From the NCBI RefSeq assembly GCF_000012905.2, contig NC_007488.2:60001-92000 (forward strand): DNA of 32,000 bases. The letters run 5' to 3'. The stretch comes from Cereibacter sphaeroides 2.4.1 (GTDB taxonomy: Bacteria > Pseudomonadota > Alphaproteobacteria > Rhodobacterales > Rhodobacteraceae). The first letter of the stretch is position 1; each line of letters begins with the position of its first letter. Made by a program: the position numbers and the translations under genes. Below the pieces are notes generated by a model. The model was not told the DNA's origin. It searched no databases and saw only the letters and a list, made by a program, of their open reading frames with translations. Positions 1,158 to 27,646 of the stretch are shown one piece after another.

Positions 1158-2156
1158 TCAGAAGCGCGCGCTGCGGCGCGAGCGGGCGAGCTTCGCGCGG
1201 GGTGGGGGGGCTTCGGCGGCGGTTTCATGGGCGAGGGTCGTGCAGACCCAGCGCCAGGTCTCGGCCAGCCCCTCCTCGAGGCCGATGCGCGGGGCCCAGT
1301 CGAAGGCTGCGCGCGCGCGGGAGATGTCGAGCACCACACGGGGCACGTCGTAGCCGCGGCCGGGCTGGCGGAGCGCGCGGACGGGCGGGCCGCCCGAAGC
1401 CTGGACGGTGCGGTCGATCCCGGCCACGATCTCGGCCACCGAGGTGCCGGTGCCGCTGCCCGCGTTGAAGAAGCCGCAGGTGTCCGAGCGCAGGGTCGCA
1501 ACGCAGAGCGCCGCCAGATCGCGGACATGGATGAAGTCGCGCGTCACCTGCCCGTCGCCCCAGATCTCGACCGGCTCGCCGCGCGCGGCGCGCCACAGGT
1601 GGGTGCCGATGATCCCCTGCACGCCGGTGTGGCCCTGTCGCGGCCCGTAGGGGTTCGAGGCGCGCAGCACCACGGGCGCCAGCCCGTAGAGCGCCTGCTC
1701 CATGCGGATGTAGCTCTCGATCGCGACCTTCACGATGCCGTAGGATCCGATGGGGCGCAGCGGATGCTCCTCGGGCACCGGATCGGCCTGCGGCACGCCA
1801 TAGACCGTGCCGCCGGACGAGAGGAACACGAGCCGCCGCTTGCCCGTCGCGCGCATCACGTCGAGAAGCCGCACCGTCGCCAGAAGATTGGCTTCGATGT
1901 CGAGCCCCGGGTTGAGGTTCGCGGTCGCGGGCACCGTCGCGCTCGCCAGATGGAGCACCGCCTCGACGTCGTGCAGCGCCCGGAACACCAGAGCCGGGTC
2001 GCTGTAGTCGCCCATGACATAATCGACGCCGGCAAGCGGCGGACGGAAGGCCTCGGGCCGTCGGCCGAAGACCCGCACCCGACAGCCCTCCTGCAACAGA
2101 AGGTCGACGACATGTGACCCGATAAAACCGCAGCCGCCTATTACCAGAACTTTCAT
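1158..2156 (-). CDS. NAD-dependent epimerase/dehydratase (UDP-sugar 4-epimerase-like, extended SDR)
   Basis: Track ORF 1158..2159(-). The first codon in the track is GTG, and the adjacent ATG at 2154-2156 gives MKVLVIGGCGFIGSHVVDLL (GxxGxxG Rossmann motif). It also has a YGxxK-type active-site region (SYGIVKVAIE) and an overall length of about 330 aa. Confidence 0.85.
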   Translation of the reverse strand: MKVLVIGGCGFIGSHVVDLLLQEGCRVRVFGRRPEAFRPPLAGVDYVMGDYSDPALVFRALHDVEAVLHLASATVPATANLNPGLDIEANLLATVRLLDVMRATGKRRLVFLSSGGTVYGVPQADPVPEEHPLRPIGSYGIVKVAIESYIRMEQALYGLAPVVLRASNPYGPRQGHTGVQGIIGTHLWRAARGEPVEIWGDGQVTRDFIHVRDLAALCVATLRSDTCGFFNAGSGTGTSVAEIVAGIDRTVQASGGPPVRALRQPGRGYDVPRVVLDISRARAAFDWAPRIGLEEGLAETWRWVCTTLAHETAAEAPPPRAKLARSRRSARF

Positions 2157-2337
2157 CACATGTTCCTCGCCAAGCCCTGCGCGGCTTAAACTACTTCCGA
2201 TTGTATTGAGTCAGATCCGATGTCAAGCCTCATTGTTCCTCAAGGCGAGAAAGACACAGCCTGAGGTAGAAATTGCTGTGGACGCGGCAGACGATGATCG
2301 CTATCAACCACCGGCATGGACCTGCCGTTGTGAGATC

Positions 2338-2826
2338 ATGCTGGCTGTGACGAGCAATGCCTTTCTGGGCGATTCGAATAAAGATTTCCTTGCCAACTGG
2401 CAGGAAACCTTCGTTCTCTTTGCCCTTCCGGGCAGCGGTCTCGGCCTGAAGGGGCTTCTCGAGCGCAACCGGAGCGCGATCCTCATCGAACATCTGCGGC
2501 CGCCCTCGGGCCCGTTCGCCCTGCTCGCGGACCTGCCGAAGTGGCTGGGCCACCATCTCCTCGATCCGACGCGGCCGCTCCTGTTCCTCGACCGGGCGTT
2601 CGAGACGGGCGAGCTGACCGAGGAAGAGCGCGCGGGCCGGGCCAGTCCCCGCGGGCTGCGGGCCGAGCTCGACGAGGCGGGGCGGCTGCGGCTGCTGCGG
2701 CTGGGCGGCATGATCGCCACGAGCCCGGTGCTGCCGCCCTTCCTGCGCATCCTCGCCCGGCAGGAGGTGGCGGTGGCCACGGCGCTCGACCTTCTGCGCA
2801 CGGCCTTCCCGGACAGCGGCACATGA
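2338..2826 (+). CDS. Hypothetical protein, translationally coupled to the downstream glycosyltransferase
   Basis: Track ORF 2206..2826(+), which begins at a TTG. The first in-frame ATG is at 2338, and an in-frame GTG at 2278 is an alternative start. The stop TGA at 2824-2826 overlaps the ATG at 2823-2825 of the next gene (ATGA). I recognised no family motif. Confidence 0.5.
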   Translation: MLAVTSNAFLGDSNKDFLANWQETFVLFALPGSGLGLKGLLERNRSAILIEHLRPPSGPFALLADLPKWLGHHLLDPTRPLLFLDRAFETGELTEEERAGRASPRGLRAELDEAGRLRLLRLGGMIATSPVLPPFLRILARQEVAVATALDLLRTAFPDSGT

Positions 2827-5288
2827 GCGACCTCGACGACCTCTGGCGCAGCCTCGCACCCGGGCAGGTGCTTGCCGAAAGGCCGGATTTCCGCCGCCCG
2901 CCGGTCGGAGAAGCCAGCGTCTACGACGAGCTGAAGGCGCAGATTTCCGGGCTCGACAAGGTGCTGGAGGACCTGACGACCCTGCCCGCCCTGTCGGAGG
3001 CCATTGCCCTCGGCGAACCCGACGCCTGCCATCTGGCCTGCGAACTGATCCGTCTGGGCGATCCGGTCGACCGGGCCGTGTCGGATTTCTCGCACGAGGC
3101 CTACCGGGCCTGGTATCCCGACATCGCGAAGGCGAAGATCGATCCCTTCCTCCACTATCTCGAACACGGCTGGAAGGAGGGGCGGCGCACGCTGGCGAGT
3201 CTGCGCGACAAGCACCACGCCGGGCGGCGGACCTACAACCCAAACGTGCAGACCTGCCTCATCGCCGTGCACGAGCTGTCGCGGACCGGCGCCCCTGTGG
3301 TGGGGCTCGATCTGGCGCGCGAGGCGGCCGAGACTTGCAATGTGGTTGTCGTCGCAGTGCGGGGCGGCGCCCTGCTGGAGGATTTTATCGATCATGTCTG
3401 CGATCTTGTGATTTCGGAAAATCCTTTTGGGGATATTCTTTTTCTCTCTCAAGAAAGTTTCACCAGGATAGATTTCGCGATCCTCAATTCGGTGGAGGCC
3501 GTTCCGCTCGTTCGCTATGCCGTCGCGCGGGACATTCCCTTCGCGACCTATATTCACGAATATACCGATTACACCTATCCGAATTACAAGGTGACATTGA
3601 CCTCGCTCTTTTCCGATCTGCTGATCTTTTCCTCGGATCACGTCCGGCAAAGCTGGACCGGTTGGCTACGCGACGTGGAGTGCGACATCGACCGCGACAC
3701 GCGGATCCTGCCGCAGCGCCCGGTCCGGATGGGAGGCTGCACCGAGGACCGCATCCGCGAGGCGCGGGAGCGGATCTCGGCGCTGATCGGGCGCGACTGC
3801 GCGCATGTGCGCCTCGTCTGCGGCGCGGGGCATCTCCAGTGGCGCAAGGGCCCCGACATCTTCGCCATGGCGGCCCAGATCTGCGCGGCGCGCGATCCCG
3901 ACACGCTGTTCCTCTGGATCGGCGACGGGCTCAATCCCGAGGACATGGAGTTCGGGGTATGGATGAGCTACCACCTGCGCCAGATCGGCGCGGGGCGGCC
4001 CGAGGGCAATCTCTTCCTGCTGCCGGCGGGGCCGGCCTATCCGGATGTGCTCGCGGCCGCGGATGCGATGTTCGTCTCGTCGCGGCTCGATCCGCTGCCG
4101 AACGTCGTGTTCGACGCGCTGGCGGCCGGGTGCCGGATCGTGCTCTTCGAGGGGGCGAGCGGCTTCGGCGATGCGGTCTACCGCCGATCGGGCCGGATCC
4201 GCACCGTCGAATATGGCAATCCCGCCGCCGCGGCCGAGGCGCTGCTCGACCTGCCGCGGAAGACCCCCGGGCCCGCGCGCGAGGCTGCGCCCGAGGCGGA
4301 CGGGCTCTTCGCCCGCATCCGCCGCGCGCTCCTCGACCGGCTCGCCACGCAGCGCTACTTCGTGCGCGGCGCGAGCGAGATCGACGCGCCGATGCTCTTC
4401 CACGAGCCGGAGCAGGCCGAGTTCCGCATCCTCGAGCGCGAGAAGATGATGCGCTACGGCCGCCGCCGCATGTGGCGCGATCTGGCCGAGGTCGAGGAGA
4501 GGCTGGCGGACGCCGACAACTGGGTCCACCGCAAGCTGCGGATCGCCCCCTACGGCACCGCAGAAGCCACGGAGCTGCCGCGCTTTTCGCTGCATGTCCA
4601 TGCCTTCTACACCGACGATCTGGCGCAGGACGTGCGCCGGCACGCGGCCTACCGCTGTGCCAGCCGGATCGTCGTCACCACCGACAGCGACCGGAAGGCG
4701 GACGAGATCCGCACGCTGATGGCGGCGGTGGGGCTTGCGCCCGAGGTGCTGGTCCGGCCCAACCGCGGGCGCGACATCCTGCCCTTCCTGCAGCTCTTCC
4801 TGCCCGGGGGCGCGGCGGGCGAGGACGAGATCTGGTGCCACCTGCATCAGAAGAAGTCGCTCGCCACCACGGACAGCGGCGACATCTGGCGCGCCTTCCT
4901 CCTGCGCATCCTCCTCGGGGATGAGGCGTCCCTGTCGGATGCGGCGACGAATCTGCGCAACCCAGGCGTGGGCCTCGTGGCGCCGTTCGATCCCTATTTC
5001 ATCCCGTGGGACGCCTCGCGCGCGCTGCTGCCGCGGGTCGCGCCGCGCCTGCCGGGCCCGCTGCCCGACAATCCGCTGCTCTTCCCGGTGGGCAACATGT
5101 TCTTTGTCCGCAGCGCGGTGGTGCGGGCGATGAACGACCTGTTCGGCGCGGGCTACCCCTGGCCCAACGAACCCATTCCCAACGACGGGACCGAGTTTCA
5201 TCTGATCGAGCGGCTCTGGCCCGCGCTGGCCGCGCAGTGCGGCCTGTCCTCGGTCTTCGTGCACAAGCTGGATCAGCAGAGGGTTTAG
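2823..5288 (+). CDS. Large polysaccharide-biosynthesis protein: GT4-like glycosyltransferase region fused to a C-terminal rhamnan synthesis F-like domain
   Basis: Track ORF 2541..5288(+), trimmed to the ATG at 2823 (MSDLDDLWRSLAPG...). The upstream extension is Arg/Ala/Pro-rich and overlaps the preceding ORF. The N-terminal part carries a 'YRAWYPDIAKAKIDPFLHYLEHGWKEGRR' motif common in glycan-locus proteins. The middle part looks GT4-like (CLIAVHELSRTGAPVV..., ...FVSSRLDPLPNVVFDALAAGCRIV). The C-terminal part (FSLHVHAFYTDDL...PNRGRDILPFLQLF...WCHLHQKKS...GNMFFVRS) matches my memory of the Rhamnan_synth_F family. Confidence 0.75.
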   Translation: MSDLDDLWRSLAPGQVLAERPDFRRPPVGEASVYDELKAQISGLDKVLEDLTTLPALSEAIALGEPDACHLACELIRLGDPVDRAVSDFSHEAYRAWYPDIAKAKIDPFLHYLEHGWKEGRRTLASLRDKHHAGRRTYNPNVQTCLIAVHELSRTGAPVVGLDLAREAAETCNVVVVAVRGGALLEDFIDHVCDLVISENPFGDILFLSQESFTRIDFAILNSVEAVPLVRYAVARDIPFATYIHEYTDYTYPNYKVTLTSLFSDLLIFSSDHVRQSWTGWLRDVECDIDRDTRILPQRPVRMGGCTEDRIREARERISALIGRDCAHVRLVCGAGHLQWRKGPDIFAMAAQICAARDPDTLFLWIGDGLNPEDMEFGVWMSYHLRQIGAGRPEGNLFLLPAGPAYPDVLAAADAMFVSSRLDPLPNVVFDALAAGCRIVLFEGASGFGDAVYRRSGRIRTVEYGNPAAAAEALLDLPRKTPGPAREAAPEADGLFARIRRALLDRLATQRYFVRGASEIDAPMLFHEPEQAEFRILEREKMMRYGRRRMWRDLAEVEERLADADNWVHRKLRIAPYGTAEATELPRFSLHVHAFYTDDLAQDVRRHAAYRCASRIVVTTDSDRKADEIRTLMAAVGLAPEVLVRPNRGRDILPFLQLFLPGGAAGEDEIWCHLHQKKSLATTDSGDIWRAFLLRILLGDEASLSDAATNLRNPGVGLVAPFDPYFIPWDASRALLPRVAPRLPGPLPDNPLLFPVGNMFFVRSAVVRAMNDLFGAGYPWPNEPIPNDGTEFHLIERLWPALAAQCGLSSVFVHKLDQQRV

Positions 5289-6565: not shown

Positions 6566-8032
6566 ATGTCACTCGTCCAAGCCTCCCCACCGCGGATCGC
6601 CCTCATCGTCCTCGGGATGCACCGCTCCGGCACCTCCGCCCTCGCGGGCGTCCTCGCGCAGATGGGCTGCGACCTGCCGCAGGATCTGATGCCCTCCACC
6701 GCGTTCAATCCCCGTGGCCATTTCGAGTCGCTTCAGGTCTATCACCTGAACGATGCGATCCTCGCCTCGGGGGGGTCCGCGTGGGATGACTGGGCGCCCT
6801 TCAACCCCGAGTGGTATCGCTCGCCGCGGCTGGGCGAGTTCCGGCAGCGCGCGGCCGAGGTGATGGCGCAGGAATTCGGCCGGTCGAGCCTGATCGTGCT
6901 GAAGGACCCGCGCATCTGCCGCCTGCTGCCCTTCTGGAAGGAGGTGCTGGCCGAGGCGGGCTTCCGGCCGCTCTTCGTCTGCACCCATCGCGCCCCGGAC
7001 GAGGTGGCGGCCTCGCTCTCGCGGCGCGAGGGCTGGCCTCCGGGGTGGGGGCAGCTTCTCTGGCTGCGCCATGTGCTCGAGGCCGAGGCCGAGACCCGGC
7101 AGGAGCCGCGCCTCTTCGTGTCCTACGAGGCGCTCCTGTCGGACTGGCGCGCCACGGTGGCGCGGATCGGCGAGGGGCTCGGGCTGCGCTTCCCCCGCAC
7201 GGCGGATGCGGCCGCCCCGGCCATCCGCGATTTCCTCGCCGACGAGCTGCGCCACTTCCGCTCTGCCAGCGCGCGCGAGGGCGTGCTGCCGCCGGACTGG
7301 ATCCGCCGCCCGCAGGAGATCTTCGGCCGCTGGGCCGCTACGGGCGAGACGGCCGAGGACTGGGCCGAGCTCGACGGGATCCGGGCGGAGGTCGACCGCG
7401 CCACGCCGATGCTGGGGATGGTCGCGCGCGACGCGGCCAGGGCGAGCGCGCAGGGCCGGGACGGAGAGGAGGCCGAAAAGGCGGAGCAGGCGATGCGCGA
7501 GGAGGAACTCGCGCTCCTGCGGCGCGCGCAGGCCGACACCGAGGCCCGCCTGCGCCATGCCACGGTGCATCTGGAGGCCATGACCCGCCAGCTCTCGGCC
7601 GAGATCGAGGCGACGGCCCCGGCCGAGCTTCAGGCGCGGGAGCGTCTGCCGGCGGTGGAGGCGGCCCGCGCCGCGCTCGAGCGCGAGGTGGACGATCTGC
7701 GCCAGAACCTGCGGCACCGCGCGGCTCATGTGGTCGAGCTCGAACGCCACGCGGGCGCGCTGGCCGAGCGCGCGGCGGCGCTCGAGCAGTGCGTGGCGGC
7801 GCTCGAGCAGCGCGTGGCCGAGCTCGAGCAGTGCGTGGCAGAGCTTGAGGGGCAGGGCGAGGCGCTCGAGCGCCAGCGGAAGGACGCCACCGGGAAACTG
7901 GCCGCGGCCCGTCTTCAGATCGCAGAGATGGAGGCGCGCCACGCCGCGATCCTTTCCAGCACCTCCTGGAAGGTGACGCGGCCGATCCGGTCGGCGGTGG
8001 AGAGGCTGCACCGCGCGAAGCAGCCGTCGTGA
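6566..8032 (+). CDS. Sulfotransferase family protein with a long C-terminal coiled-coil tail
   Basis: Track ORF 6566..8032(+). The N-terminus IALIVLGMHRSGTSALAGVL is a P-loop/5'-PSB-like motif, and 'LIVLKDPRICRLLPFW' is a 3'-PB-like motif. The C-terminal ~200 aa is rich in Ala, Glu, Leu and Arg with heptad periodicity (ALEQCVAALEQRVAELEQCVAELEGQGEALE). It ends with the 'SSTSWKVTRPIR' motif often seen at the end of glycan-locus coiled-coil proteins. Confidence 0.65.
   Translation: MSLVQASPPRIALIVLGMHRSGTSALAGVLAQMGCDLPQDLMPSTAFNPRGHFESLQVYHLNDAILASGGSAWDDWAPFNPEWYRSPRLGEFRQRAAEVMAQEFGRSSLIVLKDPRICRLLPFWKEVLAEAGFRPLFVCTHRAPDEVAASLSRREGWPPGWGQLLWLRHVLEAEAETRQEPRLFVSYEALLSDWRATVARIGEGLGLRFPRTADAAAPAIRDFLADELRHFRSASAREGVLPPDWIRRPQEIFGRWAATGETAEDWAELDGIRAEVDRATPMLGMVARDAARASAQGRDGEEAEKAEQAMREEELALLRRAQADTEARLRHATVHLEAMTRQLSAEIEATAPAELQARERLPAVEAARAALEREVDDLRQNLRHRAAHVVELERHAGALAERAAALEQCVAALEQRVAELEQCVAELEGQGEALERQRKDATGKLAAARLQIAEMEARHAAILSSTSWKVTRPIRSAVERLHRAKQPS
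7778..7861 (+). repeat. In-frame 21-bp (7-codon) tandem repeat: three near-identical copies plus one degenerate copy
   Basis: Copies read directly from the sequence: 7778-7798 GCGCTCGAGCAGTGCGTGGCG, 7799-7819 GCGCTCGAGCAGCGCGTGGCC, 7820-7840 GAGCTCGAGCAGTGCGTGGCA and 7841-7861 GAGCTTGAGGGGCAGGGCGAG. They encode the ALEQCVA / ALEQRVA / ELEQCVA / ELEGQGE heptads. Confidence 0.85.
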
Positions 8033-8071
8033 GTCCGCGTCCGCGGCGCCCGCTCCGGGGACGGGCCTCCG

Positions 8072-8089
8072 CTCCGGCCGCGGCCGGAG
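8072..8089. terminator. 18-bp GC-rich palindrome (CTCCGGCCGCGGCCGGAG); candidate terminator stem for the sulfotransferase gene
   Basis: Perfect palindrome located 40 nt after the stop at 8032. There is no U-tract, so intrinsic-terminator function is uncertain. Confidence 0.3.
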
Positions 8090-8159
8090 GAGCCTGACCC
8101 GGCACCCCAAGGGCTGGGGCGACAGGGTGGAAGCGGCCCGCTGCCATACAACCTGCGGC

Positions 8160-8200
8160 CTGTGCGCCGCTGCGGCGGATCCCGCGGCAGCGGCGCACAG
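8160..8200. repeat. Perfect 14-bp inverted repeat (CTGTGCGCCGCTGC ... GCAGCGGCGCACAG) with a 13-nt spacer that can itself pair (GCGG/CCGC)
   Basis: The arms are at 8160-8173 and 8187-8200 and are exact reverse complements. It lies between the glycan locus and kaiC, about 25 nt upstream of a promoter-like TTGAGA/TATACT pair. Its function is unknown; it could be a terminator/insulator or an operator. Confidence 0.7.
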
Positions 8201-8225
8201 GCCTGAAAATAGTGCTCAAGGACAG

Positions 8226-8252
8226 TTGAGAATCCGCAGCACGGGATATACT
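8226..8252 (+). promoter_or_regulatory. Candidate sigma70-type promoter for the kai operon
   Basis: TTGAGA (8226-8231), a 15-nt spacer and TATACT (8247-8252), in a locally AT-richer stretch about 60 nt upstream of the kaiC ATG. The spacer is shorter than the optimum. This is a consensus match by eye only. Confidence 0.25.
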
Positions 8253-8311
8253 TCTCGCAACCCGGCGGCCTCGAACGGCCGCGGGTCTTGTTAAGCCGAG
8301 GTGATGGACCG

Positions 8312-10024
8312 ATGACGTCTCAGTTGGGGATCGGCAAGTCGCCGACCGGCATCCAGGGGTTCGACGAGCTGACACTCGGCGGACTGCCCACCGGACGCCC
8401 GAGCCTCGTCTGCGGGTCCGCGGGCTGCGGCAAGACCCTGTTCGCCTCCACCTTCCTCATCAACGGCGTGCGCGACCACGGCGAGCCGGGCGTCTTCGTG
8501 ACCTTCGAGGAGCGCCCCGAGGACATCGTGAACAACGTGGCCTCGCTGGGCTTCGAGCTCGACAAGCTGATCGAGGAAGAGAAGATCGCGATCGAACATA
8601 TCGCGGTCGATCCCTCCGAAGTGGCCGAGATCGGCGACTACGACCTCGAGGGGCTGTTCCTGCGACTGGAGCTGGCCATCGACACGGTGGGCGCCAAGCG
8701 CGTGGTTCTCGACACGATCGAAAGCCTGTTCTCGGCCTTCTCGAACCCCGCGATCCTGCGGGCCGAGATCCGGCGGCTGTTCGACTGGCTGAAGGAGCGC
8801 GGGCTCACCACCGTCATCACCGCCGAGCGGGGCGACGGCGCGCTGACGCGGCAGGGGCTCGAGGAATATGTCTCGGACTGCGTGATCCTGCTCGACCACC
8901 GGGTCGAGAACCAGATCTCGACCCGCCGCCTGCGCATCGTGAAATACCGCGGCACGGCGCACGGGACCAACGAATATCCGTTCCTGATCGACACCGACGG
9001 CTTCTCGGTGCTGCCCGTCAGCGCGCTGGGGCTGCTGCATCAGGTCCATGAGGAGCGCATCGCCTCGGGCGTGCCCGATCTCGATGCGATGATGGCGGGC
9101 GGCGGCTTCTTCCGCGGCTCCTCGATCCTCGTCTCGGGCGTGGCCGGCGCGGGCAAATCCTCGCTCGCCGCCCATTTCGCCGCCGCCGCCTGCGCGCGGG
9201 GCGAGCGGGCCATGTATTTCTCCTTCGAGGAGGCGGCCGATCAGGCGGTGCGCAACATGCGCTCGCTGGGCCTCGATCTCGGGCGCTGGCGCGACGCGGG
9301 CCTGCTGCGCTTCATGGCGACGCGGCCCACCTTCTACAGCCTCGAGATGCATCTGGCGGTGATCCTGCGCGAGGTGATGCGCTTCGAGCCCTCCGTCGTG
9401 GTGCTCGACCCGATCTCGGCCTTCACCGAGAGCGGCGACCGGCTCGAGGTGCAGTCGATGCTGCTGCGGATCGTCGATTTCCTCAAGAACCGCGGCATCA
9501 CCGGCATCTTCACCCATCTCGCCCACAGCCAGAACGAGGCCACGACCGATGCGGGCCTGTCGTCGCTGATGGATGGCTGGGTGCTGATGCTGAACCGCGA
9601 GGTGAATGGCGAGTTCAACCGCGAGCTCTATCTGCTCAAGGCCCGCGGCATGGCCCATTCGAACCAGGTGCGCGAGTTCCTGATGAGCGATCGCGGCATC
9701 TCGCTCCTGCCGCCGCATCTGGGCGAGGGCGGGGCGCTCACCGGCACCGCCCGCAAGGCCGAGGAGGCGCGGCTGCGCCGGGCCGAGATCGAGCGGCAGA
9801 CCGAGCTCGGCCGGCTCCAGCAGCAGATCGAGCAGCGCCGCCGCCGGGCGCGCGCGCAGATCGAGGCGCTCGAGGCGGAGCTGCAGGCCGAGGAGATCGC
9901 GCTCAAGGCGCTGGTGGAGAGCGAGAGCGCGCACGAGCGACAACGGCTGGCCGATGCCGATACCCTGGCCCGAAGCCGCGGAAACGAGCGTTTCGCGGAC
10001 CTCTTGATGAATAAGGGAGAGTGA
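8312..10024 (+). CDS. kaiC: Circadian clock protein KaiC (double RecA-like/P-loop domain autokinase) with an extended C-terminal coiled-coil tail
   Basis: Track ORF 8288..10024(+), which begins at a TTG. I trimmed it to the ATG at 8312, preceded by GAGGTG at 8297-8302. CI domain: [18 protein letters not shown], Walker A GSAGCGKT, catalytic pair [10 protein letters not shown] and Walker [14 protein letters not shown] domain: [13 protein letters not shown], Walker [19 protein letters not shown] and [10 protein letters not shown]. The segment [42 protein letters not shown] aligns with the S. elongatus HISTITDTIILLQ...KMRGSWHDKAIREF region, which puts Ser-Ser where Ser431/Thr432 sit. Confidence 0.95.
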
Positions 10025-10026
10025 GC

Positions 10027-10296
10027 ATGCGTCGCCTCGTCCTCTATGTCGCGGGTCAGACCCCCAAATCTCTGGCCGCCATCAGCAACCTCCGCCGCAT
10101 CTGCGAGGAAAACCTGCCCGGCCAGTATGAGGTCGAGGTCATCGACCTGAAGCAGAATCCGCGGCTCGCCAAGGAACACAGCATCGTGGCGATCCCCACC
10201 CTCGTGCGCGAGCTGCCGGTGCCGATCCGCAAGATCATCGGCGACCTGTCCGACAAGGAGCAGGTGCTGGTGAACCTCAAGATGGACATGGAGTAG
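10027..10296 (+). CDS. kaiB: Circadian clock protein KaiB
   Basis: Track ORF 10021..10296(+). The GTG at 10021 overlaps the kaiC stop (GTGA). The in-frame ATG at 10027 follows AAGGGAGAG (10013-10021) at good spacing, so I prefer it. The protein [81 protein letters not shown] is colinear with cyanobacterial KaiB (LKLYVAGNTPNS...[22 protein letters not shown]...PVRRIIGDLSDREKVL). Confidence 0.95.
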
Positions 10297-10301
10297 GGCC
10301 C

Positions 10302-11738
10302 GTGACCCCGGCCGAGATCGACGAGCTCCGCCGACGGCTCCACGAGGCCGAAGAGACGCTGAAGGCCATCCGTCAGGGCGATGTCGATGCCCTTGTGGTG
10401 GGCGCGTCCGACGACACCGACGTCTATGTGATCGGCGGCGATCCCGACATCTGCCGCAGCTTCCTCGACATGATGGAGATCGGGGCGGCCGCGCTCGACA
10501 ACACCGGGCGCGTCCTCTACGCGAATGCCGTGCTGGCCGATCTTGTGGGCCGGCCGCTGCCCGAACTCGAGGGGATGCGGCTGTCCGAGCTGACCGGCGA
10601 TCCGGCGCTCGAGAGCGAGATCCTCGAGGGCAGGCTCCGCCGCCGCCGGATCCCGCTCGGCGTGGCCGGCGCAGAGCGGCAGGTGATGCTCTCCTGCGGG
10701 AAGCTGCGGCTCGGCACCGTGTCGGGCCATGCCGTCACCTTCACCGATTTCACCGAGCAGCTCGCGGCCGAACGGTCGCGCCAGAACGAGAAGGCGGCGC
10801 TGGCCATCATCGCCTGCGCGAACGAGCCCGTCTTCGTCTGCGACACTTTGGGCCTCATCACGCATCTGAGCGGCGCCGCGGCGGTGCTCGCGGGCAGCGG
10901 GGCCATCGGCCGGCCCTTGTCGGAGGTCATGGATCTGAGCGTGGGCGACGGCACCGGGCTCCTCACGCTGGGCGAGATCGTGGCGCAGGCCACCGAGGGC
11001 ATTCCGGTGCAGGGGATCGAGGCGGTCGCGGCCGAGGGCACGCCCTTCTATCTCATCAGCGCGGCGCCGCTTCAGGTGCCGGGCGAGGCCGTCAGCGGCT
11101 GCGTCATCACCATGGTGGACCTGTCGCAGCGCAAGGCGGCCGAGCGCCACCAGCAGCTTCTGCTGCGCGAGCTCGATCACCGGGTCAAGAACACGCTCGC
11201 GCTGGTCATGTCGATCAGCCGCCGCACGATGCACAGCGAGGAGACGCTGGAGGGCTATCAGAAGGCCTTCACCGCCCGCATTCAGGCGCTGGCCGCGACG
11301 CACAACCTGCTTGCCGACAAGTCCTGGAGCGACATCTCGATCCGCGACGTGCTGGTGCGCGAACTGGCGCCCTACAACGAGGGCTTCTCGCAGCGCATCC
11401 TCGTCGAGGTGCCCGATGTCGAGATCGAGCCGCGCTCGGCCATCGCGCTCGGCCTCGTGATCCACGAGCTCGCGACCAACGCCACAAAATACGGCTCGCT
11501 CTCGACGCCTGAGGGGCAGGTCAGGGTCCGTGGCCTTCCGGGCGCGGACGAGCCTGCGGACGTGGTCTGCCTCGAATGGCTCGAGCGCGGCGGCCCGCCG
11601 GTGTCCGAGCCCACCCGGTCGGGCTTCGGCCAGACCGTGATCCGCCACGCCTTCGCCTATGCCGAGGGCGGCGGCGCCGAGGTCAGCTTCGAGCCCGACG
11701 GGGTGCGCTGCCGGGTTTCGGTGCCGACCGGCGTCTGA
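10302..11738 (+). CDS. PAS-domain sensor histidine kinase of the HWE/HisKA_2 type, co-transcribed with kaiCB
   Basis: Track ORF 10302..11738(+). The GTG start is only 5 nt after the kaiB stop (TAG, 10294-10296). The N-terminal helix is EIDELRRRLHEAEETLKAIRQGDVDALVV, followed by two PAS-like segments (..LDNTGRVLYANAVLADLVGRP.. and ..VFVCDTLGLITHLSGAAAVLAG..). The H-box is LLRELDHRVKNTLALV and the N-box is VIHELATNATKYGS. 'CLEWLERGGPPV' is the W-x-E signature of HWE kinases, and GFGQTVI is the G2 box. There is no receiver domain. Confidence 0.85.
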   Translation: MTPAEIDELRRRLHEAEETLKAIRQGDVDALVVGASDDTDVYVIGGDPDICRSFLDMMEIGAAALDNTGRVLYANAVLADLVGRPLPELEGMRLSELTGDPALESEILEGRLRRRRIPLGVAGAERQVMLSCGKLRLGTVSGHAVTFTDFTEQLAAERSRQNEKAALAIIACANEPVFVCDTLGLITHLSGAAAVLAGSGAIGRPLSEVMDLSVGDGTGLLTLGEIVAQATEGIPVQGIEAVAAEGTPFYLISAAPLQVPGEAVSGCVITMVDLSQRKAAERHQQLLLRELDHRVKNTLALVMSISRRTMHSEETLEGYQKAFTARIQALAATHNLLADKSWSDISIRDVLVRELAPYNEGFSQRILVEVPDVEIEPRSAIALGLVIHELATNATKYGSLSTPEGQVRVRGLPGADEPADVVCLEWLERGGPPVSEPTRSGFGQTVIRHAFAYAEGGGAEVSFEPDGVRCRVSVPTGV

Positions 11739-11745
11739 GCCGCCT

Positions 11746-12012
11746 TCAGCTCCCGCCCCGGCCGAAGAGACGGCCGAGCCAGCCCGCCCCGGATCCCGGC
11801 CTGGCCGGGCTGCGGGCCAGCGCCCGGCGCCCCGCCTCGGTCAGCCGGTAGCGCCGCGCCGTGACGATGCGGAAGAGGCCCAGATCCGTCAGCCGCTCGG
11901 CCCTCCGCACGATCTCCTCCTCGGCCTCGGTGAGCGACAAAAGCTCTTCGGGCTGCCGCGCCGCGAGGGCGAGCAGGTCCAGAAGCGGAGGGGGAAGCGG
12001 ATCGTCGGACAT
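11746..12012 (-). CDS. Small hypothetical protein (88 aa), possibly winged-helix-like
   Basis: Track ORF 11746..12012(-), starting at an ATG and convergent with the kinase (8 nt between the stops). '...LTDLGLFRIVTARRYRLTEAGRRAL' resembles the recognition-helix/wing end of wHTH proteins. No firm family assignment, and coding status is unproven. Confidence 0.4.
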   Translation of the reverse strand: MSDDPLPPPLLDLLALAARQPEELLSLTEAEEEIVRRAERLTDLGLFRIVTARRYRLTEAGRRALARSPARPGSGAGWLGRLFGRGGS

Positions 12013-12059
12013 CTGGCCTGCGGGGCGGCGGGGGCCGCCCCTCCCTCATTCGCGCCCTG

Positions 12060-12509
12060 TCAGCGCACCACGAGAACCGGCACCGGACTGTGGGCCAGCA
12101 CTTCGGCCGTCTGGCTGCCGAGGAGGAGCCGGCCCAGCCCGCGCCGCCCGTGCGAGGACATGCAGATCAGGCTGCAGTCGCGGCTGCGGGCGGCTTCGAC
12201 GATGGCTTCGGCCGGCAGCGAGCCCGGCACATGCAGCACCTCGGCCGAGACGCCCATCCGGTCGGCGGCCTCGCGGGCGTCCTTGAGGATGCCCTCGGCC
12301 CGCTCCTTCTGCCGCGCCTCATATTCGGTATCGAGCTCCACCGGGGCGACCCAGGCCTCGCCGGCCGAGGCGGCATAGAGCGGAAAGGCCTCGGTCACCG
12401 TGATGATCGTCACCTTCGCGCCGAGCGCCCGCGCGAGGGTGAGGCCGTGGTCGAGCCCCTTGCCGGCGGTTTCGGACCCGTCGGTGGCAATGAGAATATG
12501 TTGGTACAT
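12060..12509 (-). CDS. Universal stress protein (UspA family)
   Basis: Track ORF 12060..12584(-), trimmed to the ATG at 12507-12509, preceded by AGGAG. MYQHILIATDGSETAGKGLDHGLTLARALGAKVTIITV... and the C-terminal ...MSSHGRRGLGRLLLGSQTAEVLAHSPVPVLVVR carry the G-x2-G-x9-G(S/T) ATP-binding signature. Confidence 0.85.
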   Translation of the reverse strand: MYQHILIATDGSETAGKGLDHGLTLARALGAKVTIITVTEAFPLYAASAGEAWVAPVELDTEYEARQKERAEGILKDAREAADRMGVSAEVLHVPGSLPAEAIVEAARSRDCSLICMSSHGRRGLGRLLLGSQTAEVLAHSPVPVLVVR

Positions 12510-12749
12510 GACCGCTCCTGTCTCTGGATGAGAGGATCCGGCGCCGCGAGGACCCGTTTCCCCTTTCGCACAGAGGACCCGCAATGTCCGGGAAAATCAA
12601 GGAGAAGCCGCGCGGCCCGCGGCCTTTGCCCCGCCGTGCGGGGCTGGTGTGCGGCGCGCGCGGGACGAAATCCGGCGCATCGCGTGGGTGAGGCCCCGCA
12701 AGGGCAGTCCGCGCCGTCGTCCGGAGCCTTGCGCGCCCCCGAAGGTGCG

Positions 12750-16416: not shown

Positions 16417-16713
16417 TCACTTCCGTCTGTCCTTCGGGCGCCGCCGCTCTTCCCGCTCGATCTCGACCACGGCGAGGCTGCCCGGATCGAGCATCACCTC
16501 GACCTCGAAGCCCTCGCGGTCCCAGCCGTCGATCTCGTAGCAGCCGTCGTCGACATGGAGCCGCCGGATCGTCCAGCCTTCGCGGGCCGCCAGCGCCTCG
16601 ACGGCCGCGCGGGGCTGCCAGTCGGCCATGGCCACGCTGCACTCGTCATCCGCCGCGGCGGGCGCCGCCAGCACCGCGGCGACCAGCGCCATCGTCCGCA
16701 TCCCTGGCCTCAT
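16417..16713 (-). CDS. Secreted PepSY-like domain protein
   Basis: Track ORF 16417..16713(-), with GGAGG upstream of the ATG. It has a signal-peptide-like N-terminus (MRTMALVAAVLAAPAAA) and a small domain (...AAVEALAAREGWTIRRLHVDDGCYEIDGWDREGFEVEVMLDPGSLAVV) that resembles PepSY-type modules found next to two-component systems. Confidence 0.6.
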   Translation of the reverse strand: MRPGMRTMALVAAVLAAPAAADDECSVAMADWQPRAAVEALAAREGWTIRRLHVDDGCYEIDGWDREGFEVEVMLDPGSLAVVEIEREERRRPKDRRK

Positions 16714-16848
16714 GCCTCTGCCTCCACCGGATCGCCTCCTGTCTGCCGGGCGCGCCTTACGGTCACCTGACAGGTGGCGCGAAAGGCTGTCAGCCTGGTG
16801 TCAGGCGAAGTGCGGAGAATGAGCGGAAACCGTCTGGTGGTGAGTGAC

Positions 16849-17508
16849 ATGCGTATCCTGCTGATCGAGGACGACGAGGTGCTGGGCAATGCGGTGGCCG
16901 ACCATGTGGCCGAGGCCGGTCACACGGTCGATCGGGCGAAATGCCTCTCCGAGGCCGACGACTCCCTCGCCGTCGCGACCTACGATCTGGCGCTGCTCGA
17001 CCTGATGCTGCCCGACGGGCTGGGCATCCCCTTCCTGCGCAAGCGCCGGGCGCGGGGGGACAGCACGCCGGTCATCATCCTGACCGCGCTCGACCAGATC
17101 ACCGAGCGGATCGACGGGCTGAATGCGGGGGCGGACGACTATCTCGTGAAGCCCTTCGATCTGGCCGAACTTTCCGCGCGGATCGGATCGGTGGCCCGGC
17201 GCTACGGCGGCAATCCCAACCCGGTCGTCCGGCTCGGCGCCTTCGAGGTCGATCTCGCCGCCCGCACCATCCGCCGCGAGGGCCGCCCGGTGCCGCTCAC
17301 GGCGCGCGAATGGGTGCTGCTCGAGGCCTTCCTTGCGCGGCCCAATCAAGTGCTGTCCAAGGCGCAGCTCGAGGAGCGGCTCTGGTCCTTCGAGGCCGAG
17401 ATCGAGAGCAACGCCATCGAGGTCTATGTGAGCCGCCTCCGGCGCAAGCTCGACCACTCGGTGATCGAGACGGTGCGGGGCCTGGGCTACAGGCTCGGCT
17501 GCCCGTGA
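16849..17508 (+). CDS. OmpR/PhoB-family response regulator
   Basis: Track ORF 16774..17508(+), trimmed to the ATG at 16849. The receiver domain is MRILLIEDDEVLG...LALLDLMLPDGLG...DDYLVKPFDLAEL. The winged-helix output domain is LTAREWVLLEAF...IEVYVSRLRRKL...VRGLGYRL. Confidence 0.9.
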   Translation: MRILLIEDDEVLGNAVADHVAEAGHTVDRAKCLSEADDSLAVATYDLALLDLMLPDGLGIPFLRKRRARGDSTPVIILTALDQITERIDGLNAGADDYLVKPFDLAELSARIGSVARRYGGNPNPVVRLGAFEVDLAARTIRREGRPVPLTAREWVLLEAFLARPNQVLSKAQLEERLWSFEAEIESNAIEVYVSRLRRKLDHSVIETVRGLGYRLGCP

Positions 17509-18827
17509 GGGTGCGCTCGCTGCAGGCCCGCCTCGCGCTGATGCTGGGCGCGGGCGTCACGTTGCTCTGGCTCGCCAGCGCCAGCTTCACCGCGCATCTG
17601 CTGCATGGCGAGCTGGACGAAGTGTTCGATTCCGCGCTGGAAGAGACGGCGCAGCGCCTGTTGCCGCTTGCGGTGATGGAGATCCTCGGCCGCGAGGAGC
17701 CGGGCGTCAGCCAGCGCATCGCCGCGCTGCGCGCCCACGAGGAATTCTATACCTACCTCGTGCGCGATCCGGCGGGCGCGGTCCTGATCGCCTCGCACCG
17801 GGCCGAGCCTGCGGACTTCCCGCCCTGCACGGCCCCGGGCTTCACGCAGACGGCGACGCACAGGCTCTATTGCGACGCGGCGCTGAAGGGGACGTTCACC
17901 ATCGCCGTGGCCGAACCGCTGGCCCACCGGGCCCGGATCGCGCAGGAGCTGGTCATGGCGCTGGGACTGCCGCTCGTGGTGCTGATCCCGCTGGCGCTGG
18001 CGGGGATCGTGGCGGTGGTGCGCTGGAGCTTCCGCCCCGTGCGCGCGCTCCGCGATGCGCTGACCCGGCGCGGCGCGGGCGATCTCGCGCCGGTGGGGGG
18101 CGCCGACCTTCCGGCCGAGATCGCGCCGGTGGCGGCGGCGGCCGACCAGCTCCTCGAGCGGCTGCGCCGCGCCTTCGAGGCCGAACGCTCCTTCGCCGCC
18201 CATGCCGCGCACGAGCTGCGCACGCCGGTGGCGGGCGCCACCGCGCAGGCGCAGCGCATCCGGATCGAGACGACGGATCCCAAGGCCGCGATGCGCGCGG
18301 GCGAGATCGAGGCCACCCTGAAGCGCCTTTCGCGGCTGGCCGACAAGCTGATGCAGCTGGCCCGCGCCGAGGGCGGCCGCCCGCTGGCCGACACGCCCGC
18401 CGACCTCCGGCCGATCCTGTCGCTGGTGGCGAGCGACTTCACCCGCGCGGGCGCCGGCGCGCGGTTCGCGCTGACGCTGCCCGGGACGCCGGTGCCGAGC
18501 CGGATCGACCCCGACGCCTTCGCCATCCTCTGCCGCAACCTGATCGAGAATGCGCTGCGCCATGGCGGGCCCGACGAGCCCGTCGAGGTCGCCCTGACCG
18601 AGGACGGCCTGCTCAGGGTGCAGAACGGCGGCCCGCCCGTGCCGGCGGACGTGCTGCCCCGCCTGACCCGGCGGTTCGAGCGGGCGGCCGGCGCGGGCGA
18701 GGGCTCGGGCCTCGGCCTCTCGATCGTGCGCACCATCGTCGAGCGGGTGGGCGCCACGCTCGATCTCGCCTCGCCGCGCCCGGGCCGGAGCGACGGCTTC
18801 GCCGCGACCGTGCGCCTTCCCGCCTGA
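17505..18827 (+). CDS. Membrane sensor histidine kinase (HisKA + HATPase_c)
   Basis: This is the in-frame tail of track ORF 16941..18827(+). The GTG at 17505 overlaps the response regulator stop (GTGA), and the GTG at 17511 is an alternative start. It has two hydrophobic segments (LALMLGAGVTLLWLASASF and ALGLPLVVLIPLALAGIVAVV), an H-box FAAHAAHELRTPV, an N-box NLIENALRHG and a G-box GSGLGLSIV. Confidence 0.85.
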   Translation: MRVRSLQARLALMLGAGVTLLWLASASFTAHLLHGELDEVFDSALEETAQRLLPLAVMEILGREEPGVSQRIAALRAHEEFYTYLVRDPAGAVLIASHRAEPADFPPCTAPGFTQTATHRLYCDAALKGTFTIAVAEPLAHRARIAQELVMALGLPLVVLIPLALAGIVAVVRWSFRPVRALRDALTRRGAGDLAPVGGADLPAEIAPVAAAADQLLERLRRAFEAERSFAAHAAHELRTPVAGATAQAQRIRIETTDPKAAMRAGEIEATLKRLSRLADKLMQLARAEGGRPLADTPADLRPILSLVASDFTRAGAGARFALTLPGTPVPSRIDPDAFAILCRNLIENALRHGGPDEPVEVALTEDGLLRVQNGGPPVPADVLPRLTRRFERAAGAGEGSGLGLSIVRTIVERVGATLDLASPRPGRSDGFAATVRLPA

Positions 18828-26768: not shown

Positions 26769-27646
26769 GCTCGCAGGCCGTCTTCGTCCTGTTCAACGGC
26801 ATGGCGCAGGGGATGGCCTTCTTCCTCGTCGCGGCGGGCCTGACCTGGGTGTTCGGGATCCTCAAGATCCTGAACCTTGCCCACGGCGCCTTCTTCATGC
26901 TGGGCGCCTATATCGCCTACAGCGTGGGCGGCGCCTGGCCTGCCTCGATCTGGACCTTCCTCGCCGTGGCGCTCGTCGCCGCGGCGGCGGTGGGGGTGCT
27001 CGGCTATCTGACCGATGTGCTGGTGCTGCGCCGGCTGCGCAACGTCGACTACCATTATGCGCTGATCGCGACCTTCGGGCTCATGCTCTTCTGCGAGGGG
27101 GTGGCGAAGGCCATCTGGGGCACCGACTATTTCGCCGTCATGCCCCCGCCCGAGGTCGACCGCGCCATCGTCGTCGGCGGCTCCTACATCTCGGTCTATA
27201 CGCTCTTCGTGATCGGCACGGGGCTCGTGCTCTATGCCGCGCTCGAGATCGTCATGCACCGCACCTGGGCCGGAAAGATCATGCGCGCGGTCTCGAACGA
27301 TCCCTGGATGGCCGGAACGGTGGGCATCAACGTGCCGCTCGTCCTGATGCTGTCGGTGGTGGCGAGCTTCGTGCTGGCGGGCTTTGCGGGCGGCGTCCTC
27401 GTGCCGAACCAGGCGCTGTCGCCGCATGTGGGTGCCTCGTTCGTGCTCTATGCCTTCATGGCGGTGGTGATCGGCGGGCTCGGCAGCATCCGCGGCACCT
27501 TCCTCGCCTGCATCCTCCTCGGCATCGTCGAGAGCGCCAACGCCACCTTCATGGCGCAGTATGGCGGGATCGCGATCTACATCCTCCTCGCCGTCGCGCT
27601 CGTGTGGAAACCGAACGGCCTCTTCCCCGCACAAGGAACGACCTGA
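26765..27646 (+). CDS. ABC transporter permease (LivH-like)
   Basis: This is the tail of track ORF 25469..27646(+). The ATG at 26765 overlaps the SBP stop (ATGA). MSSQAVFVLFNGMAQGMAFFLVAAGLTWVFGILKILNLAHGAFFMLGAY... is multi-spanning and matches the LivH signature. Confidence 0.9.
   Translation: MSSQAVFVLFNGMAQGMAFFLVAAGLTWVFGILKILNLAHGAFFMLGAYIAYSVGGAWPASIWTFLAVALVAAAAVGVLGYLTDVLVLRRLRNVDYHYALIATFGLMLFCEGVAKAIWGTDYFAVMPPPEVDRAIVVGGSYISVYTLFVIGTGLVLYAALEIVMHRTWAGKIMRAVSNDPWMAGTVGINVPLVLMLSVVASFVLAGFAGGVLVPNQALSPHVGASFVLYAFMAVVIGGLGSIRGTFLACILLGIVESANATFMAQYGGIAIYILLAVALVWKPNGLFPAQGTT

Follow-up and report, generated by a model that had tools for sequence, protein, structure and literature searches.

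A KaiA-less kaiC-kaiB-kinase locus on a plasmid of Cereibacter sphaeroides 2.4.1 and a candidate Kai-partner domain in its sensor kinase

The 32-kb stretch of DNA analyzed in this study, referred to here as the window, carries a kaiC gene of the KaiC2 subgroup on the forward strand at positions 8312-10024, which encodes 570 amino acids from the ATG at 8312 and corresponds to RefSeq WP_011331300.1 ('circadian clock protein KaiC'). Two other in-frame starts are possible, TTG 8288 and TTG 8324; the latter was used for the published construct, four codons downstream of the RefSeq start, and published residue numbers are accordingly 4 lower than those given here. The protein contains two tandem RecA-like domains, and Pfam PF06745 matched it in two stretches (whole-protein E 3.4e-108); it also aligned with KaiC structures along its full length. 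A motif search located the CI Walker A loop GSAGCGKT (residues 35-42, 8414-8437), the CI catalytic EE pair (residues 66-67, 8507-8512), the CII Walker A loop GVAGAGKS (residues 276-283, 9137-9160) and the CII catalytic EE pair (residues 306-307, 9227-9232), all on the forward strand. Both Walker A loops, both catalytic pairs and the phosphosite pair Ser417-Ser418 (published S413/S414; 9560-9565, forward strand) were invariant in an alignment of five KaiC sequences. The Ser-Ser pair enters the definition of KaiC2, and electron density for pS414 has been reported (PMC10076222). All of this agrees with the original prediction, which had described a two-domain KaiC with a Walker A loop and an EE pair in each domain and with a Ser-Ser pair. 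The chain is longer than those of S. elongatus KaiC (570 versus 519 amino acids) and ends in a C-terminal extension at about residues 482-570 (9755-10021, forward strand), which all five sequences of the alignment share and which is identical in sequence to that of PDB 8DBA, where it forms a 12-helix coiled-coil bundle joining two hexamers (PMC10076222).

A kaiB gene encoding 89 amino acids follows on the same strand at 10027-10296, with its stop codon at 10294-10296 (RefSeq WP_002725098.1). Two starts are possible: the GTG at 10021, with a 4-nt overlap (GTGA) with the kaiC stop, and the ATG at 10027 used by RefSeq, 2 nt after that stop; the gap between kaiC and kaiB is thus -4 or +2 nt, and the overlapping or abutting start that had been proposed was found in either case. 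KaiB contains a thioredoxin-like domain (Pfam PF07689, E 3.2e-26). Only 5 nt further on, a third gene at 10302-11738 on the forward strand encodes a soluble PAS-PAS-HWE sensor histidine kinase of 478 amino acids, the downstream HWE kinase that had been anticipated.

A 4-kb stretch of the locus showed 100% identity to the approximately 114-kb plasmid(s) of Cereibacter (Rhodobacter) sphaeroides 2.4.1 and 98.6% DNA identity to plasmid pRSKD131A of strain KD131, which is the strain studied by Pitsawong et al. (Nature 2023; PMC10076222). KaiC and KaiB each have a single RefSeq accession common to both strains. The kaiC genes differ at 8 nt and at 0 amino acids, and all differences in kaiC and kaiB between the window and KD131 are synonymous. 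Furthermore, the window KaiC is 100% identical to 8DBA_A over 566 residues and KaiB is 100% identical to chain M of 8FWJ; the KaiC of 8FWI and 8FWJ differs solely by the S-to-E phosphomimetic pair (EE at the Ser-Ser position), and 8DB3 is a coil truncation of the same KaiC. The KD131 system (8DBA, 8DB3, 8FWI, 8FWJ) therefore has the KaiC and KaiB of the window, encoded on a plasmid in the same order and between the same neighboring genes, and differs only by strain. It is almost certain that the locus is the kaiC-kaiB(-kinase) operon of the approximately 114-kb plasmid of strain 2.4.1, with KaiC and KaiB identical to the KD131 proteins characterized in 2023. The locus is already known: it is annotated in RefSeq, its two core proteins have been solved by crystallography and cryo-EM, and their mechanism in vitro has been published. 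The expectations that the pair would belong to the KaiA-less hourglass class of purple bacteria, and that its core had probably been described, were both borne out, since this is the same system.

The kaiC, kaiB and kinase genes, all of which are under purifying selection in the strain comparison, are probably transcribed as one unit, as their spacing suggests. A scan of 7900-12700 revealed no terminator-like site between the three genes and zero sigma-70 promoter-like sites; the two terminator-like hairpins that it returned were at chance level, which makes the scan uninformative. A candidate promoter/operator block, TTGAGA-N15-TATACT, was tentatively placed upstream of kaiC at 8205-8262 on the forward strand. 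This block is AT-richer than its surroundings and, unlike the variable intergenic DNA on either side, nearly invariant in strains 2.4.1, KD131 and IL106; it was missed by the consensus sigma-70 scan because its spacer is 15 nt. A 22-nt inverted repeat at 8157-8203 was considered as a regulatory element and set aside; it is not conserved in KD131 or IL106 and therefore probably not essential. On the 5' side of kaiC lie genes for an NAD-dependent epimerase/dehydratase, an RgpF-type rhamnan-synthesis/glycosyltransferase protein and two sulfotransferase-like proteins, consistent with the upstream glycan locus described earlier, and the GC content across the window (64-76%) is as high as had been stated. 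Shortly beyond the three genes, the opposite strand carries a gene for a universal stress protein (12060-12509).

The original prediction also held that nothing resembling KaiA, SasA, CikA or RpaA flanks the pair, and the present data support this view. No KaiA-like open reading frame was found in the 32-kb window or in a 44-kb annotated stretch of the plasmid, and the organism has been stated to contain 'only KaiBC' (PMC10076222). Previous investigations restricted KaiA to cyanobacteria among 11,264 genomes, and non-cyanobacterial KaiA3 homologues have been reported in five genera, Rhodobacter not among them. The kinase is of neither cyanobacterial type: it comprises PAS_4, PAS_9 and HWE_HK domains without the KaiB-like domain of SasA, gave no SasA match in the PDB search, and lacks the GAF and receiver (pseudo-receiver) domains of CikA. 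An OmpR-family response regulator is encoded 6.5 kb downstream (16849-17508). As an RpaA equivalent it was rejected, because it comes with a HisKA kinase of its own and a neighboring PepSY gene, because DrrD, BasR and KdpE are nearer (E 1e-39 to 1e-32) and RpaA ranks only 17th among its PDB matches (E 6e-26); it is therefore generic. No cognate response regulator is encoded near the kaiBC-kinase genes.

The published mechanism was established in vitro throughout, with proteins identical to those of the window. KaiC autophosphorylates at the Ser-Ser pair without KaiA and has KaiA-independent autokinase, autophosphatase and ATPase activities; its C-terminal extension of roughly 50 residues leaves the A-loop exposed and joins two hexamers, zipper-like, as a dodecamer, whose coiled-coil register is shifted by phosphorylation and allosterically coupled to dephosphorylation (PMC10076222). 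Moreover, fold-switched KaiB on the CI ring accelerates ATP hydrolysis (PMC10076222), and the fold-switching of KaiB has been described separately (PMC11185700). Owing to these properties, KaiC remains phosphorylated in vitro at high ATP:ADP ratios ('day') and loses its phosphates at low ratios ('night'), which makes the system in vitro an externally reset hourglass rather than a self-sustained oscillator. Our literature search found neither a knockout nor an in-cell phosphorylation time course for R. sphaeroides. Min et al. (2005) are cited as having recorded rhythms of roughly 20 h with a reporter under constant conditions, data that Ma et al. (2016) judged inconclusive; if real, these rhythms would not fit a pure hourglass.

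S. elongatus KaiC shares the two-domain architecture and the catalytic motifs of the window KaiC (phmmer E ~1e-103 to structures), and cyanobacterial KaiB, which is bound to CI in its fold-switched state, is homologous to the window KaiB (E ~1e-23). The two systems differ, however, in several respects: the phosphosite is Ser-Ser instead of Ser431-Thr432; the R. sphaeroides proteins form a coiled-coil dodecamer and an hourglass without KaiA, whereas the S. elongatus KaiABC proteins form a self-sustained oscillator; and R. sphaeroides KaiB stimulates the ATPase, whereas cyanobacterial KaiB sequesters KaiA. Rhodopseudomonas palustris has a kaiC-kaiB-PAS/HK operon with the same three-gene architecture, likewise without KaiA, and its authors stated that the same operon occurs in R. 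sphaeroides (Ma et al., PLoS Genet 2016). R. palustris differs from R. sphaeroides in having in-vivo evidence from a knockout with a fitness effect under light/dark cycles. As here, Pseudomonas species encode a KaiC homologue beside a kinase with a PAS domain, in modules that also contain a response regulator; the KaiC homologue binds this neighboring kinase, and the kinase's N-terminal PAS domain is enough for binding (Terrettaz et al., bioRxiv 2022). By analogy, this binding is the best precedent for how kinase and KaiC may be coupled in the present system, although the Pseudomonas kaiC neighborhoods as described list no kaiB and their phenotypes lie in stress resistance and metabolism.

The sensor kinase gene is presumably co-transcribed with kaiC and kaiB. 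The Pfam matches of the kinase are HWE_HK (PF07536, E 2.6e-24), PAS_4 and PAS_9. The HWE dimerization/phosphoacceptor domain spans residues 290-369 (11169-11408, forward strand) and contains the H-box ELDHRVKN with His293 (11178-11180, forward strand). The protein belongs to the HWE family by its H-box His, its N-box without an F-box and the Trp and Glu from which the family is named; H293, N393, W426, E428, G441 and G443 are invariant across 26 kinase orthologues. In the PDB, only LOV-HWE kinases proved to be related to it, with matches restricted to the kinase core. Five of the 478 residues differ from the KD131 counterpart, and dN/dS between strains is 0.12-0.20. No Cys, His or Trp in PAS-A or PAS-B is invariant among the 26 orthologues, which is weak negative evidence, and thus neither a LOV-type Cys nor a FixL-type His signature is present. 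The claim that the wiring of this module to the cell is undescribed holds in part. The operon with its PAS/HK gene has been mentioned by Ma 2016, by Schmelling 2017 (citing Min 2005) and in a 2024 review, and the kinase has been noted since 2005; our literature search found no functional study of the R. sphaeroides kaiBC-linked kinase. The direction favored in this literature is that of the kinase as an O2/redox input, the reverse of the output role considered below.

The order kaiC-kaiB-HWE kinase is kept in 27 loci, mostly alphaproteobacterial and often with 4-nt gene overlaps. The nearest three-gene orthologues, with KaiC 71-75% identical, occur in Aquibium, Sphingomonas, Devosia, Rhizobium, Pseudorhizobium and Pleomorphomonas, and the long KaiC type is also found in Acidobacteriota, Bacteroidota, Ignavibacteria, Planctomycetota and Verrucomicrobiota. 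The kinase begins with a helix followed by PAS-A (residues 1-165, 10302-10796, forward strand; motif EAEETLKAIRQGDVDALVV), a candidate Kai-partner domain. Among 86 long-type KaiC loci from at least 8 phyla, there are 66 in which the next gene after kaiC-kaiB encodes a homologue of this module at its N-terminus, and none was found elsewhere in the flanks of these 86 loci. Furthermore, a PAS-A search of 72,556 plasmids matched 13 records, every one a kai locus in which the match adjoins kaiB. A generic PAS flavor was considered and discarded, as the matches were confined to kai loci in both searches. Conservation across phyla covers the N-terminal helix and the initial half of PAS-A, while the transmitter behind PAS-A varies: HWE, HisKA, HisKA_3, hybrid, GGDEF-EAL, CheB/CheR, and PAS-only adaptor or none. 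In one locus, KaiB, PAS and kinase are fused in a single protein.

The distribution of PAS-A points to a dedicated Kai partner domain. In our main reading, the PAS-PAS-HWE kinase is probably the physical partner of KaiBC; it would most likely dock through the N-terminal helix+PAS-A module and would convert the state of KaiC into phosphotransfer to a putative response regulator. The partnership is suggested by the gene spacing, the purifying selection on all three genes, the conserved gene order, the confinement of PAS-A to this position and the PAS-mediated binding in Pseudomonas. The output step of this proposal, as an inference, draws on synteny and on analogy with the KaiB-less Pseudomonas systems. 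A bolder reading, held tentatively at a probability of about 35%, is that the helix and PAS-A are specialized across phyla in binding KaiC2-KaiB2 timers and reading them out, a functional counterpart of the KaiB-like domain of SasA behind which the transmitter has been swapped. The module might sense the phosphorylation-dependent shift of the coiled-coil register in the KaiC dodecamer. The linkage of kaiBC with a kinase and the PAS-mediated binding of KaiC in Pseudomonas are already published; the only new elements would be a PAS subfamily that is specific to Kai loci across phyla and the recognition that the R. sphaeroides system of known structure contains a member of it.

The same comparative data bear on a broader alternative, in which the KaiBC module is a general sensor of energy state or stress that reads adenylate charge and signals through the kinase to a stress response, a role proposed for the KaiC systems of Legionella and Pseudomonas, and day/night timing in a phototroph is a special case. 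The nearest orthologues listed above come mostly from non-phototrophs. The spread of the long KaiC type over the further groups named above, the plasmid-borne location of the locus and the nearby universal stress protein gene (12060-12509) also fit this alternative, as do the reported stress roles of KaiC homologues in Pseudomonas and Legionella and the simple in-vitro cue for KaiC, namely the ATP:ADP ratio. In R. palustris, however, the fitness effect of the kaiC knockout is specific to light/dark cycles (Ma 2016). We regard a general sensor of energy state or stress as somewhat unlikely; since the ATP:ADP ratio tracks light in a phototroph, it and the day/night reading are not mutually exclusive.

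Whether the kinase reads KaiC or instructs it is a separate matter. PAS domains often bind redox cofactors. Min et al. (2005) suggested that the kinase is an input whose PAS domains would respond to oxygen or redox state and act on KaiC, a suggestion repeated in Schmelling 2017 and in the 2024 review, according to which the reporter period was not the same in aerobic as in anaerobic growth. Nevertheless, PAS-A and PAS-B have no invariant Cys, His or Trp in the 26 orthologues, the ATP:ADP ratio is a sufficient input for KaiBC in vitro, and a Pseudomonas PAS domain binds KaiC directly. The combination of a conserved helix/PAS-A with swapped transmitters fits a docking domain with diverse outputs better than a single shared ligand sensor that acts on KaiC. 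An input role of the kinase seems doubtful. A true self-sustained circadian oscillator in vivo, driven with an unrecognized KaiA substitute encoded elsewhere in the genome, is highly improbable. The roughly 20-h rhythms attributed to Min et al. (2005) would agree with it, and chimeric KaiA3 proteins are known from some non-cyanobacteria, among them the purple bacterium Rhodospirillum. However, KaiA3 orthologues are unreported in Rhodobacter and their partner is KaiC3, not KaiC2; KaiC_RS needs no activator to autophosphorylate within half an hour, and its oscillation depends on switching of the ATP:ADP ratio (PMC10076222); entrainment and temperature compensation were never shown (Ma 2016); and the window contains nothing KaiA-like.

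In conclusion, for the best-understood KaiA-free timer the gene likeliest to supply the output is the next one of its operon. The comparative result narrows the focus to residues 1-165 of the kinase and predicts that Kai proteins of many phyla, those of non-phototrophs among them, are contacted through the helix+PAS-A module. A dedicated read-out domain of this kind would supply the missing output of the 'primordial' hourglass; if the prediction holds, KaiBC would look less like a day/night clock than like a general energy-state timer.

The kaiC gene extended on the forward strand from an ATG at 8312 to a TGA at 10022-10024 (570 codons) and contained PF06745 in two stretches (Pfam, E = 3.4e-108). 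Motif searches located the Walker A loops at residues 35-42 (GSAGCGKT) and 276-283 (GVAGAGKS), the catalytic EE pairs at residues 66-67 and 306-307, and the Ser-Ser phosphosite at residues 417-418, which bore out the two-domain KaiC of the original prediction. RefSeq starts kaiC at 8312, and the crystallised construct starts at a TTG at 8324, four residues shorter. The kaiB gene (forward strand, PF07689, E = 3.2e-26) ended at 10296, so the predicted interval of 8312-10296 was exact to the nucleotide. Its start, expected to overlap or abut the kaiC stop, was either a GTG at 10021 (91 codons), overlapping that stop as GTGA, or an ATG at 10027 (89 codons, the RefSeq choice); a GGGAGAG Shine-Dalgarno-like run lay a little 5' of the ATG. 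The third gene (10302-11738, forward strand) began with a GTG 5 nt past the kaiB stop and encoded, in 478 codons, a kinase with PAS_4, PAS_9 and HWE_HK domains (PF07536, E = 2.6e-24). Third-position GC was 0.85-0.90 in all three open reading frames, as expected for real genes of this window (GC 64-76%); RefSeq names them kaiC, KaiB-family protein and HWE histidine kinase.

The predicted glycan locus upstream and HWE kinase downstream agreed with the gene content by Pfam and RefSeq. The 5' neighbours were an NAD-dependent epimerase/dehydratase, an RgpF-type rhamnan-synthesis/glycosyltransferase protein and two sulfotransferase-like genes, and the 3' neighbours, on the opposite strand, were a small hypothetical gene and a universal stress protein. 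Inside a large rhamnan-synthesis/glycosyltransferase gene, GC at 2001-4000 was 0.64-0.65 versus approximately 0.70 elsewhere, which would fit horizontal acquisition of a polysaccharide gene. The sulfotransferase-kaiC spacer harbored a 22-nt inverted repeat (8157-8203; arms 95% complementary, 3-nt loop) that was whole in strain 2.4.1 and degraded in its right arm in KD131 and IL106. Directly 3' of it, the block at 8205-8262 was conserved.

The comparison with R. sphaeroides KaiC proposed earlier gave 100% identity over 566 residues (PDB 8DBA). The 8FWI and 8FWJ entries differed from the window KaiC solely by Glu-Glu at the Ser-Ser pair, 8DB3 was the same sequence in truncated form, and KaiB was 100% identical to chain M of 8FWJ. 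A 4-kb stretch around the locus was 100% identical to an approximately 114-kb plasmid in six Cereibacter (Rhodobacter) sphaeroides records (2.4.1-derived or 2.4.1-matching) and 98.6% identical to pRSKD131A of strain KD131, which was used by Pitsawong et al. (Nature 2023, PMC10076222), the depositors of these Kai structures. Because of these identities, and because the RefSeq accessions of KaiC and KaiB are common to 2.4.1 and KD131, the window encodes exactly the studied proteins. The kaiBC core is thus already known, down to atomic structure and in vitro mechanism, as had been guessed.

In vitro, KaiC_RS (the KD131 protein) needs no KaiA for nucleotide exchange, and its autophosphorylation is approximately 16-fold faster than that of S. 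elongatus KaiC activated by KaiA (PMC10076222). The C-terminal extension of KaiC_RS holds the A-loop exposed, and these extensions form a 12-helix coiled coil linking two hexamers; the register of this coiled coil shifts upon phosphorylation of S413/S414 (417/418 in the window), and the shift is coupled to dephosphorylation via an allosteric network (PMC10076222). KaiB_RS interconverts spontaneously between two folds (PMC11185700), and the fold-switched form binds CI and speeds ATP hydrolysis whatever the phosphostate (in vitro, PMC10076222). KaiC_RS remains phosphorylated at high ATP, dephosphorylates with KaiB at 25:75 ATP:ADP and restarts the cycle when ATP is restored (in vitro, PMC10076222); in vitro, the system is therefore an hourglass that the ATP:ADP ratio resets, and the assignment of this locus to the purple-bacterial KaiA-less hourglass class was supported.

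No KaiA-like protein was found in the 32-kb window by Pfam, other protein searches or RefSeq annotation; the organism is reported to have KaiBC only (PMC10076222), and a survey of 11,264 genomes found KaiA in cyanobacteria alone (Schmelling 2017). As predicted, KaiA, SasA, CikA and RpaA were likewise lacking around the pair, the kinase and OmpR regulator being of other types. The kinase was rejected as SasA/CikA-like, having no KaiB-like, GAF or receiver domain (Pfam); its solved relatives were LOV-HWE kinases only, matching over the kinase core alone (PDB search). The OmpR-type regulator 6.5 kb away, rejected as an RpaA equivalent, was closer to DrrD, BasR and KdpE than to RpaA and has its own HisKA kinase. 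At 16417-18827, this regulator and its 2CSK_N/HisKA sensor kinase, an ordinary two-component system not related to RpaA/SasA, lie divergent from a PepSY-domain gene (reverse strand). Elsewhere in the window, RefSeq places two short "ATP-binding cassette domain" CDSs that overlap each other (28656-29171 and 29099-29437) within a branched-chain amino-acid ABC transporter cluster, suggesting a frameshifted or split ATPase gene, and a strong negative AT skew (-0.31) at 27001-28000, over two ABC-transporter membrane permease genes, probably stems from T-rich hydrophobic codons.

All three operon genes were under purifying selection. Against KD131, kaiC differed by 8 nt and no amino acid, with dN/dS of 0 for kaiB and 0.12 for the kinase; against IL106, dN/dS was 0.15, 0.10 and 0.20 for kaiC, kaiB and the kinase. 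A KaiC-alignment scan of species-representative genomes gave at least 598 relatives, of which the best 80 were analyzed together with six plasmid loci. In 27 loci, kaiC-kaiB was followed by a full-length orthologue of the window kinase, frequently with 4-nt gene overlaps. These loci came from Rhizobiales, Sphingomonas, Bradyrhizobium, Devosia, Falsirhodobacter and others, mostly Alphaproteobacteria with some unclassified MAGs. The kinases were 32-51% identical, with H293, N393, W426, E428 and the GFG box invariant. In Sphingomonas sp. S2M10 (L020, 6680-6990), kaiC and the orthologous kinase had no detected kaiB ORF between them, and the kinase ORF runs approximately 90 codons further 5' through low-complexity sequence; kaiB could be frameshifted or lost, or the assembly in error. 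In Sinorhizobium sp. B11 (L003, 6491-7973), the annotation splits the kinase into two overlapping CDSs (PAS protein and sensor kinase), likely a frameshift or pseudogene.

R. sphaeroides "includes a kaiC-B-PAS/HK operon (as in R. palustris)" (Ma 2016), and outside cyanobacteria kaiC-kaiB clusters are nearly always followed directly by a gene for a kinase or a GGDEF/EAL protein (De Luca 2011). The window kinase is not mentioned in PMC10076222, and no functional study of it was found in the literature searched. A homologue of its residues 1-165 (10302-10796), comprising a helix carrying EAEETLxAIRxGEVDALVV and then the first PAS domain (PAS-A), formed the N-terminus of the protein directly 3' of kaiC-kaiB in 66 of the 86 long-type KaiC loci, across many phyla; among the 20 loci lacking a match, approximately seven were truncated contigs. 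No match occurred elsewhere in the approximately 10-kb flanks. An independent control, in which 72,556 plasmids were searched for the module by tblastn, matched 13 records, always in the gene after kaiB of a KaiC-bearing record. The transmitter behind the PAS domains differed in other phyla: third genes (n = 43) contained PAS (35), HATPase_c (27), HisKA (21), receiver (19) and HisKA_3 (7) domains, and included PAS-only proteins of approximately 240 aa, one GGDEF-EAL and one CheB/CheR protein. The constant position, the plasmid control and the varied transmitters together indicated that the helix and PAS-A, not a kinase type, travel with KaiC2-KaiB2. In most non-Alphaproteobacteria loci, a second KaiB-like ORF followed kaiB (L005, L032, L035, L038, L039, L042, L044, L045, L047 and others). 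In a MAG labelled delta proteobacterium (L029, 7080-8648), a KaiB domain was fused to PAS and kinase (522 aa), a SasA-like architecture outside cyanobacteria.

Judged from sequence, the module may be a Kai-docking or read-out domain, perhaps the missing output interface, and the kinase is probably the output of KaiBC. A parallel exists in Pseudomonas, where KaiC homologues bind the neighbouring kinase, its N-terminal PAS domain being sufficient (Terrettaz et al.). A weaker rival is that the kinase PAS acts as a redox input; Min et al. (2005), as cited by Schmelling (2017) and a 2024 review, suggested that KaiBC receives redox or oxygen information through the kinase. The kinase orthologue alignment contained no invariant Cys, His or Trp in PAS-A or PAS-B. 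As a possible output interface, the Kai-specific PAS module extends published observations.

The kaiBC-kinase operon lay on plasmids (114-157 kb) in every C. sphaeroides record found, rhizobial homologues were megaplasmid-borne, and in Falsirhodobacter algicola the operon directly adjoined plasmid replication and partition genes; these locations suggest that it is mobile. The nearest three-gene orthologues belonged to genera that are mostly non-phototrophic, and the long KaiC type was present in many phyla. Together with the in vitro cue, the ATP:ADP ratio (PMC10076222), these distributions of orthologues and KaiC type make a broader reading credible: KaiBC would be a general energy-state or stress timer, and the timing of day and night in a phototroph a special case of it.
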